The notes: generated by a model from the sequence alone, not told the origin. Shown: positions 36,223 through 38,536, numbered from the stretch's first letter. The stretch is 43,240 nucleotides of DNA from a virus (IMGVR_UViG_3300000060_000001), one strand, 5' to 3'. Translations and numbers: made by a program.

Positions 36223-36288
36223 TTAGCCAAAGACACGAAACAGCACACAGAGAAAAATGACATACACGACAAGCTCGAAGTGAGTCAT
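36223..36288 (-). CDS. Possible 21-aa hydrophobic micro-protein (MTHFELVVYVIFLCVLFRVFG)
   Basis: ATGA translational-coupling overlap with the stop of the 130-aa gene. One TM-length hydrophobic stretch. No other support. Confidence 0.25.
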   Translation of the reverse strand: MTHFELVVYVIFLCVLFRVFG

Positions 36289-36677
36289 TTTGCTACCCAC
36301 ACGTATTTCCCATCGTATGAGAAATCGCCGTTGTAGTCAGTTGGCATGGCATCAGCTGGTGTGCGCTCCGCTTTGCCAGCAGGCACCCAGCCAGCCTCAG
36401 GCTCGACAAGGTACGCATCCATAGTATCCATATCAATACTGAGGATGCAGTCCTGTTCAAACACCTGTTTAGCCAGTATCGCCAGACTCATAACCTCGCC
36501 TTCTGTGTGCACTTCCACACGGATAGACATTTCGTTATGACCTAAGTAGCATCCGGCCACTTGCACCGGATGCACTTGAAACAGGTCAGTAACAGCGCGA
36601 GATAACAGAGCATGCCGCGCCATATTGTTGATGCCGTCGTATTCGTCTCTGTGGGCACTCAGGAATACAGTAAACAT
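36285..36677 (-). CDS. Hypothetical early protein, 130 aa
   Basis: GAGGTG-N4-ATG at 36677 (the track start at 36689 is GTG inside the RBS). Confidence 0.7.
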   Translation of the reverse strand: MFTVFLSAHRDEYDGINNMARHALLSRAVTDLFQVHPVQVAGCYLGHNEMSIRVEVHTEGEVMSLAILAKQVFEQDCILSIDMDTMDAYLVEPEAGWVPAGKAERTPADAMPTDYNGDFSYDGKYVWVAK

Positions 36678-36700
36678 GGTACACCTCACTCATTGGTTAT

Positions 36701-36805
36701 TATCTGGAGAGTAGCCCATCCATTGTGGCGCTTGCTTTCTTCATGCTTATGAGCATATAGCCTCGCTTGAGCATTTGAGCATTTGCCGGATGGGCTACCC
36801 AGATA
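36701..36805 (-). promoter_or_regulatory. Long interrupted stem (18 bp in total, 7 + 11 bp separated by a 3-nt bulge) enclosing 66 nt, 25 nt upstream of the second early gene. RNase III-site-like.
   Basis: Minus-sense UAUCUGG-GUAGCCCAUCC ... GGAUGGGCUAC-ucu-CCAGAUA. The 11-bp part is perfect. The loop contains the tandem CAAATGCT-CAAATGCT and a small ATGCT-CATA-AGCAT hairpin. Confidence 0.5.
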
Positions 36806-37118
36806 AATCACCTCAGAATCGCCCAGAAATTCGCCTTACGTCTTAACGTCATCCCGCATTTGCTTGGGATGCTAACTGGCTTTCAGCCGTCCAGCTCACC
36901 ATTGCTAGCTCGCTTACCAACCTACTAGACCAGACCGTCTATAACGTTGCATCGGGATATGTATGCATACCGCGCCGGAGCGCCTCTCTGTTTTCCCGTA
37001 AGCGGTATCCTTATCGCCCCCTACCTAAGTCCACGCTCGCCGTGGCTCCCGAGTAGGTCACTGACATCTTTTAGGCTTTCACCTCAGGTGGCCGCTTGAC
37101 CTGTGTTGCTTGAGACGT

Positions 37119-37147
37119 ATTACAGCAGACTGAAAACTTGCTGTCAA
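37119..37147 (-). promoter_or_regulatory. Sigma70-type early promoter (TTGACA-17 nt-TGTAAT)
   Basis: -35 TTGACA at 37142-37147 and -10 TGTAAT at 37119-37124 on the minus strand. AT-rich upstream tract. The core is homologous to the promoter at 37733-37762. Confidence 0.65.
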
Positions 37148-37197
37148 TACTATTTTCGAGATATTCATCACATTTCTGTGAATGTCTATCTCATCCA

Positions 37198-37218
37198 GCT
37201 AGTGCCCTGATAGGCTAG
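37198..37218. repeat. Left arm of the 20-21-bp inverted repeat bracketing the first early ORF
   Basis: GCTAGTGCCCTGATAGGCTAG pairs with 37500-37520. As RNA this gives 20 contiguous pairs including one G-U. Confidence 0.85.
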
Positions 37219-37235
37219 CTCGCGCTAGCCATCAC

Positions 37236-37481
37236 TCAATCAACTATACCGCCACCTTTCATACGGGCGTCCAGTGCGGATTGAACATCCGCCAGTGCGT
37301 CATCTACCGCGCCAACGCTCATCCCAAGCACAGTCGATAACCAGTCGTCATCACCTGCAAAGGTAGAATCAATTTCGCGCAGCGTTTCGCGTGCGGCCTG
37401 CAGTTTCGCAGCCCACACAGCCATTTGAATCAGCTGCGCACGTGTATAGTCGAATTTGTACAAGTCAATGTTAATGCTCAT
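37236..37481 (-). CDS. First early protein, small and acidic, 81 aa
   Basis: GAGG-N9-ATG. ORF track. Function unknown. Confidence 0.7.
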   Translation of the reverse strand: MSINIDLYKFDYTRAQLIQMAVWAAKLQAARETLREIDSTFAGDDDWLSTVLGMSVGAVDDALADVQSALDARMKGGGIVD

Positions 37482-37499
37482 GATAGTAACCTCATTCAG

Positions 37500-37520
37500 T
37501 TAGCCTATCAGGACACTAGC
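37500..37520. repeat. Right arm of the inverted repeat bracketing the first early ORF
   Basis: TTAGCCTATCAGGACACTAGC is the reverse complement of 37198-37218 with 2 DNA mismatches, one of which is G-U compatible in RNA. Confidence 0.85.
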
Positions 37521-37524
37521 CAGA

Positions 37525-37536
37525 TTGTTAAAGAGC
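37525..37536 (-). promoter_or_regulatory. rrn-type boxA antitermination element (GCTCTTTAACAA)
   Basis: 12/12 match to the E. coli rrn boxA core GCUCUUUAACAA. It is in sense orientation in the early leader, 4 nt upstream of the 5' arm of the long-range stem. Confidence 0.6.
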
Positions 37537-37732
37537 GTTTGGGATGGCTCAACCTTCTTAGCTCAACGTGTATTGCGTTCGGTAGCTGGCTTATCCGCTC
37601 TTACGTCGAAACTCACCATGCGTTACATTGCTCATCGTCATATTGCGTCTGGTATGTCTTCAGGTACTTAGGCGTCACACCTTCCCCTAGCCATCCCCCG
37701 AATCACGTTACCCTGTGTTTCGGTGTGATTGA

Positions 37733-37762
37733 ATTACAGCACACAACCTAAAAACCTTGCAA
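37733..37762 (-). promoter_or_regulatory. Sigma70-type early promoter (TTGCAA-18 nt-TGTAAT) with an upstream UP-like AT tract
   Basis: -35 at 37757-37762 and -10 at 37733-37738. A second TTGCAA lies at 37770-37775. The tract AGAAAATAATTCGAATTTATTT (37774-37795) lies immediately upstream. Confidence 0.55.
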
Positions 37763-37792: not shown

Positions 37793-37886
37793 TCTAAGTG
37801 TATGTATTCAGTAGTAATTTAGTTGAATGGATAAAACATACAGATACCGTTTAAACCCTATTTTTACCATCGTCTAAGTGTATGTA
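37793..37886. repeat. Two direct copies of TCTAAGTGTATGTA (37793-37806 and 37873-37886) in the AT-rich island
   Basis: Exact 14-mers 80 bp apart. This is the only strongly AT-rich segment of the genome. Confidence 0.8.
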
Positions 37887-37901
37887 ATACATAGTTAATT
37901 C

Positions 37902-37930
37902 ATAAAAACTACTATCATGCTAGTGACAGC
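37902..37930 (+). promoter_or_regulatory. Inverted copy (A) of the phage-promoter-like motif (ATAAAAACTACTATCATGCTAGTGACAGC), oriented opposite to all genes
   Basis: 22-nt exact match (37905-37926) to the minus strand at 15911-15932. The wider alignment is 27/29 by eye. It is followed on the plus strand by a purine-rich, T-poor tract like the leader after copy B. Confidence 0.5.
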
Positions 37931-38165
37931 TATCAGCTGGAGCTGGCGATGAGCAAGCGTGAAACGCTGTGAGGCGAATCGGTGAGCGTGAGGAGTCGAG
38001 AGACGTGAGTCTCTGAGACGACGCGCAGCGAACGTGTACCAGTGACAGCGTGTGTACCAGTAGAAGTAACAGGAGTAGACAGTGACGGTGTGACCGTGAC
38101 ACTGACAGCAGGTGAGAGTCCTGTACAGAGTAGAGAGTGAACCAGTGGTGCAGCGAGAGTGTACC

Positions 38166-38206
38166 ATCCCGCACCATCCAACCATCCCCGTGTATCCCCG
38201 TATCCC
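38166..38206. repeat. Five closely spaced ATCC(C) units. On the gene-sense strand these read GGGAT..GGGGAT..GGGGAT..GGAT..GGGAT, a G-run cluster.
   Basis: Units start at 38166, 38176, 38184, 38194 and 38202. Confidence 0.75.
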
Positions 38207-38226
38207 GTCGTGTGCATCACGACAAG

Positions 38227-38266
38227 GCAAAAGAGATTGAGAGCAGGTGACAGCAAAAGAGATTGA
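38227..38266. repeat. Direct repeat GCAAAAGAGATTGA x2 (38227-38240 and 38253-38266)
   Basis: Exact 14-mers 26 bp apart. These are the only A/T-containing islands inside the T-depleted tract. Confidence 0.8.
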
Positions 38267-38536
38267 TACGACCGCGCGCACTCTCCGATACCACAGACAC
38301 GGTGTGACCGTCCCCATACCATAGAGCGCACACAGTACACAGCCATAGGCGCAACGTACGGTACCGCCACGCCACGCACAGCATGAGGCAATGCGATTGC
38401 ATAGCCCATAGCCCAGCGCCCCGCACAGCGCGATACAGAGCGCCTGACACGCTACGCCATCCACGACGGCACAGCAGCACAGCCAGCGGCAGCCCATCGC
38501 GCAATAATGACCGCGCGCGAAGAGCGACGGCAGCCA

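Follow-up and report, generated by a model that had tools for sequence, protein, structure and literature searches.

In bacteriophage T7, the genome end that enters the cell carries tandem strong host promoters (A1, A2, and A3) and a long untranslated leader, with an exact boxA downstream of the promoters (T7 positions 813–824, between A3 and gene 0.3) and a structured element just ahead of the first anti-restriction gene (0.3). R0.3, which lies ahead of gene 0.3, is an RNase III site. In HK022 and lambda, cis RNA elements located just after the early promoters (the put RNAs and nut sites, respectively) modify RNA polymerase and protect long early transcripts; we know of no N-like protein in the phage group considered here. 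The rrn operons of Escherichia coli combine a boxB-boxA-boxC arrangement and an antitermination complex with a 16S leader-trailer helix that is cut by RNase III (PMC4807359, PMC10250234). Noncoding RNA (ncRNA) candidates derived from 5′ untranslated regions (UTRs) have been reported for virulent Pseudomonas phages on the basis of ONT-cappable-seq (PMC10914365). Here we describe the early region of the viral genome IMGVR_UViG_3300000060_000001, a stretch of 43,240 nucleotides (nt) analyzed at its full length (the window), in which two predicted minus-strand promoters, P1 and P2, each precede a long untranslated leader (positions 36,678 to 37,762). Leader 1 ends in an rrn-type boxA that is followed by one arm of a long-range helix enclosing gene 1, while leader 2 is, on comparative evidence, a structured RNA without a described family that lies ahead of an anti-restriction gene encoding a SAMase (SAM lyase, SAM being S-adenosylmethionine).

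The window has a counterpart to the promoters, untranslated leader, boxA, and structured element named above for T7. However, T7 has a local hairpin after its boxA, where the window and SP6-like phages have a long-range helix round a whole gene, and it has neither a counterpart to the ~300-nt conserved fold of leader 2 nor the TGTAAT −10 boxes of the window. As in the E. coli rrn leader, an identical boxA stands directly before the upstream arm of a long-range helix by which the downstream cargo is enclosed (PMC4807359, PMC10250234). The rrn cargo is rRNA rather than a small protein-coding gene, and the helix there spans 1.6 kb as compared to ~200–700 nt here; equivalents of boxB and boxC were not identified in the window, and Nus binding is predicted from the boxA sequence. 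With the HK022 put RNAs and lambda nut sites the resemblance is one of position and logic, without a sequence or structural match. The Pseudomonas phage candidates share with leader 2 a 5′ UTR location and conservation at the genus level, but they are shorter than 250 nt and bounded by premature terminators, whereas leader 2 has 435 nt and no terminator (PMC10914365).

The window represents a Bonnellvirus-like phage (Autographiviridae) of the T7 supergroup. Its closest phages are the Escherichia phages aldrigsur, altidsur, Lidtsur, and J8-65 (~75% identity in the DNA-polymerase region), all of which are classified by their records as Bonnellvirus, Autographiviridae. The minus strand carries the genes around the two leaders; terminal-repeat-type non-coding DNA lies upstream (37900–38500, minus strand), and small early genes lie downstream. 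We consider this region to be probably the early control region of a T7-supergroup phage, transcribed by host RNA polymerase. Early control regions of the T7 type, in which boxA and RNase III sites occur, are in themselves known. What we could not find described are three variants on it: the long-range helices round mRNAs beside boxA, the fold of the SAMase leader, and the TGTAAT promoters; for SP6, the boxA cassettes may have been described before.

A first-pass annotation of the sequence had described the two promoter-leader units as duplicated modules with structured leaders. The promoters, leader lengths, hairpins, and structure of leader 2 in that description hold, but the paralogy of the modules and the structure of leader 1 do not. 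The best local alignment between the modules scored 23, as compared to 18.7±2.2 for dinucleotide shuffles, 20 of 300 of which scored as high. Similarity is limited to the promoter core and its consensus, and the second “homologous block” said to lie further downstream is not significant alone. The two leaders are two different conserved elements rather than significant paralogues.

The rrn-type boxA at the end of leader 1 (CGCTCTTTAACAA) is exact. Its 12-nt core (GCTCTTTAACAA, 37525–37536, minus strand) is the single exact copy in the window and lies downstream of a promoter; the same boxA sequence is found after early promoters in T7, SP6, K1E, R15Z, and others. The two arms of what we term the bracket helix (27–28 nt, 86% complementary) lie directly after boxA and beyond gene 1, respectively, and the minimum-energy structure predicted for the cassette (z score −6.0) contains the helix, with 27 base pairs (bp), 25 of them contiguous. 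The bracket helix thereby provides the largely uninterrupted duplex of at least ~20 bp expected of an RNase III site; the 3′ stem of leader 2 (8 + 11 + 3 bp, with 3′ bulges) was also counted as one, and for both the bracket helices and the leader 2 stem the pairing is kept by compensatory change in relatives.

The arrangement is widespread. A 60-nt block comprising boxA and the adjoining arm is 83–93% identical in SP6, K1E, PhiM1, phD2B, MR4, and many others. When every boxA in the early regions of the related phages compared was scanned, it was followed within a few nt by an arm whose partner lay 180–690 nt downstream and usually abutted the next boxA. Such helices were found in more than 20 cassettes from at least 10 phages, with arm sequences that differ yet remain complementary (30 bp in SP6, 29 bp in phD2B, a perfect 22 bp in MR4, 25 bp in Ptacy1537, and 20 bp in Era103). 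In Bonnellvirus itself, the arms occur as two co-varying haplotypes over 10 genomes (TCTGGTGTG/CACACCAGA and TCTGGAGTGTA/TACGCTCCAGA), and the helix after boxA encloses only the promoters P2 and P3 (~160 nt) and no gene. Because the enclosed genes are unrelated between phages, the cassette appears to be a platform with variable cargo. For gene 1 of the window, a protein-based search of IMG/VR found no relatives.

A similar layout is seen in a phage of a different family, Escherichia phage Ptacy1537 (Autonotataviridae), where positions 1340–2370 contain P1, a short leader, boxA, a 25-bp bracket helix round gene 1, a second promoter, and a ~450-nt non-coding leader that is unrelated. In this phage, the second promoter shares part of its −10 box with the 3′ arm of the helix.

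Leader 2 is the homologue of the SAMase-gene leader in Bonnellvirus and LIMEzero. Although blastn with the leader 2 of the window itself returned nothing, J8-65 has a leader of ~430 nt at the same place, which as a blastn query returned 22 records. When 12 leaders were aligned (those of 10 Bonnellviruses, LIMEzero, and the window), conserved blocks were seen to alternate with indels that correspond to whole hairpins. The SAMase of the window is only ~30% identical in amino acid sequence to those of Bonnellvirus, and a protein-based search of IMG/VR found no relatives of it; with the leader alignable over all 12 phages, the leader appears to be at least as constrained as the protein. The ratio of G to C is 1.26–1.38 in 12 of 12 leaders, versus 1.10 on the sense strand of the genome.

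Folding of leader 2 is more stable than expected (z score −2.77), and comparative support is strong. RNAalifold predicted 94 pairs for the 12 leaders, with 96% of cells paired. The covariation in relatives that the first-pass annotation had proposed looking for is present: 34 pairs changed on both sides, as compared to 10.6±2.0 in shuffles (0 of 500 reached 34) and to 3–9 pairs with two-sided change in controls in which the partners were slid. Twelve pairs are predominantly G-U, which argues that the fold is specific to the sense RNA. The hairpins named by the first-pass annotation are all there (CCACG/CGTGG at 37045–37031, GGC/GCC at 36888–36878, and CATCCC/GGGATG at 36871–36850), and hairpins unrelated in sequence take up fixed positions; for example, where the window has CATCCC/GGGATG, others are found in J8-65 (GTGGAT/ATCCAC), HHU8 (GTGAGT/ACTCAC), and BHUENT7 (ACCCG/CGGGT). 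The 3′ stem has 28 pairs that are 100% paired in 12 of 12 phages, 11 of them with compensatory change, and an identical topology when the window, J8-65, and LIMEzero were folded separately. The stem ends 8–10 nt before the Shine-Dalgarno sequence of the SAMase gene, ~20 nt upstream of the AUG.

The family to which this leader belongs is narrow. Pattern scans of IMG/VR and metagenomes for leader 2 recovered only the known Bonnellvirus isolates and one metagenome contig of the same genus, and an nhmmer profile of leader 2 had no match in the early regions of the other phages compared, among which Ptacy1537, Asterion, and KPN234 also have long leaders. The Rfam search that the first-pass annotation had also suggested gave no family: with the Rfam 15 covariance models, nothing in this region of the window scored better than E = 4, and scans of the early regions of J8-65, LIMEzero, Asterion, Ptacy1537, KPN234, and R15Z yielded nothing relevant. 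The nature of the downstream gene also raised the possibility of a SAM riboswitch, which was ruled out by the lack of an Rfam match and by the size of the leader, far too great for such an element. Both leaders were compared with E. coli genomes by blastn; no similar or complementary sequence was returned, and hence no candidate for a host mimic or an antisense target.

Both promoters are located exactly where the first-pass annotation had placed them (Table 1), and the leader lengths it gave are also right (~245 nt from P1 to the ATG at 37481 and ~435 nt from P2 to the ATG at 36677). The motif TTG[AC][AC]A-N16–18-TGTAAT has exactly two copies in the 43-kb window, P1 and P2, both on the minus strand and ~615 nt apart (TGTAAT boxes at 37733–37738 and 37119–37124). 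A P1-type promoter with downstream TCAATCACACC is also present in Bonnellvirus, Ptacy1537, Asterion, and KPN234, and P2 is the counterpart of the last tandem promoter in Bonnellvirus and LIMEzero; the LIMEzero record annotates its copies as putative host promoters. Twelve related phages have two to four tandem copies at the equivalent place, comparable to A1–A3 of T7. Counting the window phage, 46 sites from 13 phages make up this promoter family: TGTAAT is invariant (46 of 46), TG at −15/−14 is present in all but one (45 of 46), TTGACA is perfect in 32, and the spacer is 17 nt in 36 sites and 18 nt in 10. No canonical site with A at −11 (TATAAT) was found in the early regions of the 13 phages. 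P1 and P2 thus have what is expected of sigma-70 extended −10 promoters in a −35 near TTGACA, a spacer of 17±1 bp, and TG at −15/−14, but not the A at −11 (hexamer position 2), where TGTAAT, with five of six consensus matches, carries G. It is on account of this second base that neither promoter is listed by a generic sigma-70 scan. For some E. coli constitutive promoters, TGTAAT has been given as the −10, by prediction only (PMC3946193).

Leader 1 is conserved in another manner. Its body is ~71% identical over ~190 nt (blastn) to the leader of Vibrio phage R15Z, a member of a different subfamily, and blocks are also held in common with Klebsiella phages Asterion and KPN234. The shared blocks are a start of TCAATCACACC; UAGGGGAAG with a small hairpin and AAGUACC; AUGAGCAAYGUA; and GGUGAG ... 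CAGCUACCGAA.GCAA ... GAGCUAAGAA. The UAGGGGAAG hairpin shows modest covariation (its third stem pair is AU in 5 instances, UA in 3, and CG in 1). Overall, however, folding of leader 1 is no better than that of shuffles (z score −0.88), and the consensus fold of four full leader 1 sequences is nearly empty (−2.3 kcal/mol), which indicates that leader 1 is conserved as sequence and not as structure. The long-range pairing claimed for the upstream module does exist in the window, between GGGGATGGC (37698–37690) and GCCATCCC (37548–37541), but the pairing of GGGATGGC with GCCATCCC is not kept in the relatives of leader 1. AUGAGCAAYGUA begins a mini open reading frame (ORF) of 12–24 codons in four phages (the window, Vibrio R15Z, Klebsiella Asterion, and KPN234), in which the first four codons differ only synonymously (AGC/AGT, AAT/AAC) and the remainder is not conserved. 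Of two pattern scans for leader 1, one had no match and the other gave seven chance matches in unrelated coding sequences.

The amount of non-coding DNA, which the first-pass annotation had regarded as unusual, is normal for the phage group: the first gene is preceded by 1.2 kb in J8-65 and by 1.9 kb in LIMEzero, and T7-group phages all retain at least ~1 kb of non-coding DNA at the entering genome end. A terminator scan identified no intrinsic terminators in the early region of the window, so the leaders would be read through into the genes.

Some further observations concern the surrounding DNA. The AT-rich tract upstream of P1 contains two copies of (A/T)TACATACACTTAGA, 80 nt apart (37793–37820 and 37873–37900, minus strand); the element has no further copies in the genome and also precedes the P1-type promoter of Escherichia phage Ptacy1537. 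Similarity by blastn to several Klebsiella phages extends across this tract. A repeated ATACATACACTTAGA element was considered as a phage-polymerase promoter and ruled out, as there are just two copies in the genome. In Klebsiella phage Asterion, a tRNA-like T-arm sequence (GGTTCGATTCC) occurs at ~1440–1510 inside a non-coding early region of 1.1 kb, which is annotated with small, spurious-looking ORFs on both strands.

Table 1. Features of the early region, in the order of predicted transcription; positions are counted from the first nucleotide of the window.
Feature	Position	Strand	Description
P1, predicted early promoter	37733–37762	minus	TTGCAA, 18-nt spacer, TGc + TGTAAT (extended −10); AT-rich tract upstream
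Leader 1 body	37538–37726	minus	Conserved sequence blocks, little conserved structure
Motif UAGGGGAAG, small hairpin, AAGUACC	37663–37689	minus	Ten instances in seven phages
Conserved AUGAGCAAYGUA, mini-ORF start (MSNV...)	37591–37641	minus	No good Shine-Dalgarno sequence; unexplained
rrn-type boxA	37525–37537	minus	CGCTCTTTAACAA; exact; ends leader 1
Bracket helix, 5′ arm	37498–37524	minus	Leader-trailer type; directly after boxA
Gene 1	37236–37481	minus	81 amino acids, no family match
Bracket helix, 3′ arm	37194–37220	minus	Pairs with 37498–37524; beyond gene 1
P2, predicted early promoter	37119–37147	minus	TTGACA, 17-nt spacer, TGc + TGTAAT (extended −10)
Leader 2, 5′ domain	36813–37112	minus	Conserved core helices with lineage-specific hairpin insertions
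Leader 2, 3′ stem	36695–36812	minus	3 bp, 8 bp, 3-nt 3′ bulge, 11 bp, invariant ACAAU bulge, 3 bp, variable tip; candidate RNase III or processing site
SAMase (SAM lyase) anti-restriction gene (gene 2) with Shine-Dalgarno sequence	36285–36689	minus	ORF 36677–36288; phrog_2226, E 3e-23

Taken from sequence comparison, both leaders are likely to be cis-acting platforms for antitermination, processing, and mRNA stability. The two strong extended −10 promoters would fire once the DNA end enters the cell. The P1 transcript would then begin with a conserved, mostly unstructured leader and continue into the exact rrn-type boxA, which we infer loads the host factors NusB/NusE (S10) together with NusA, NusG, and SuhB onto the polymerase. 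Such a Nus complex would keep Rho from acting on the untranslated leader and would hold boxA at the polymerase, so that the arm right after boxA could pair co-transcriptionally with its partner beyond gene 1 to form the 27-bp leader-trailer helix, as in 16S rRNA. RNase III would cut this helix and thereby excise or trim a stable gene 1 message. The P2 transcript would instead begin with the 435-nt conserved, G-rich, multi-helix leader, whose 3′ stem may serve as a processing site or a 5′ stabilizer that determines where the SAMase mRNA begins while leaving the ribosome-binding site free, and whose folded 5′ domain may protect a long untranslated RNA against Rho and RNase E. The suggestion of the first-pass annotation that the leaders are antitermination and processing platforms rather than spacers fits well with these features, that is, with the exact rrn boxA and leader-trailer-type helix of leader 1 and with the covarying RNA and the stem adjacent to the ribosome-binding site of leader 2.

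This proposal accounts for the positions, the conservation, and the covariation, but not for the ~300 nt of fold or the invariant bulge in leader 2, and several points weigh against it. P2 transcripts have no boxA, so antitermination cannot explain leader 2. The ~300 nt of conserved fold exceeds the needs of a stabilizer. The sequence rules for RNase III are loose, and the invariant ACAAU bulge and conserved sequence of the leader 2 stem hint at a partner more specific than RNase III. Both −10 hexamers have a G where sigma-70 promoters almost always carry an A, so that it is their context and conservation, and not agreement with the consensus, that support calling them promoters. Finally, the covariation comes mostly from few lineages (10 close Bonnellviruses and 2 outliers), so the independent evolutionary events are fewer than the cell counts suggest.

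With the ~300-nt fold and the ACAAU bulge unexplained, a separate RNA function for leader 2 deserves some, if limited, credence. Leader 2, and perhaps the body of leader 1 too, could be released by processing as a stable trans-acting RNA that is made first along with the SAMase and either ties up a host protein or defense system, as a decoy or sponge, or binds RNA polymerase, as a put-like RNA, and makes it resistant to termination. We regard this as rather unlikely. A conserved, covarying fold that extends ~300 nt beyond what a processing site needs, the better conservation of the leader than of the SAMase protein behind it, and invariant nucleotides in single-stranded and bulged positions would all be expected of such an RNA; the stem of fixed geometry could free it, another antitermination device would make sense on P2 transcripts that lack boxA, and the 5′ UTR-derived ncRNA candidates of other virulent phages (PMC10914365) offer a precedent. 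However, it matches no Rfam family, shows neither similarity nor complementarity to E. coli genomes, has no terminator to yield a discrete small RNA, and is confined to a narrow family (Bonnellvirus, LIMEzero, and the window phage). It is likewise a tentative proposition that the ~430-nt SAMase leader constitutes a new class of phage structured RNA with its own function, consisting of a core with swappable hairpins and a stem with the invariant ACAAU bulge. That function could be put-like processive antitermination of the boxA-less P2 transcripts, or the sequestering of a host factor or defense component in the first minute of infection.

Two other explanations seem very improbable to us. The leaders might act through short translated ORFs, namely the MSNV mini-ORF of leader 1 and a ~41-codon ORF over the leader 2 stem, through which ribosomes would be linked to polymerase or expression of the downstream gene controlled. 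AUGAGCAAYGUA is indeed kept in four phages with only synonymous change in its first four codons, and the 41-amino-acid ORF is intact in 6 of 10 Bonnellviruses, where it ends at the SAMase ribosome-binding site, but the Shine-Dalgarno sequences are weak or mis-spaced and the peptides diverge in sequence and length after residue 4–5. Moreover, a conserved upstream ORF in leader 2 can be ruled out: in 5 of 12 phages (altidsur, Kc261, ROV85, Lidtsur, and LIMEzero) stop codons in the variable loop interrupt it, and its two halves shift frame from one lineage to another, whereas compensatory change maintains the pairing of the stem. That compensatory change also speaks against the final explanation, namely that the non-coding DNA acts at the DNA level, through spacing for the first stage of genome entry, protein-binding sites, or an origin, with the RNA folds being incidental. 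The non-coding DNA retained at the entering end by all T7-group phages and the repeated AT-rich element upstream of P1 would suit such a role. However, the opposite strand would have A-C mismatches in place of the 12 pairs that are predominantly G-U, unrelated hairpins are exchanged at fixed positions, and arms that pair across 180–690 nt cannot make one DNA site.

For a phage of this kind, the first RNA made from the infecting genome decides whether anti-restriction functions come in time. If both leaders are the cis-acting platforms that we favor, a whole branch of T7-like phages would be reusing the logic of the host rRNA operons, boxA followed by the upstream arm of a long-range helix, for small early genes organized as swappable cassettes. 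One lineage also keeps a large folded RNA, without a described family, ahead of its anti-restriction gene. The G at −11, invariant in all 46 promoters, is an unexplained departure from sigma-70 rules that merits biochemistry. E. coli K-12 supports growth of relatives such as J8-65 and the -sur phages, which makes Nus dependence and RNase III processing, as predicted here, directly testable, along with any independent RNA function.

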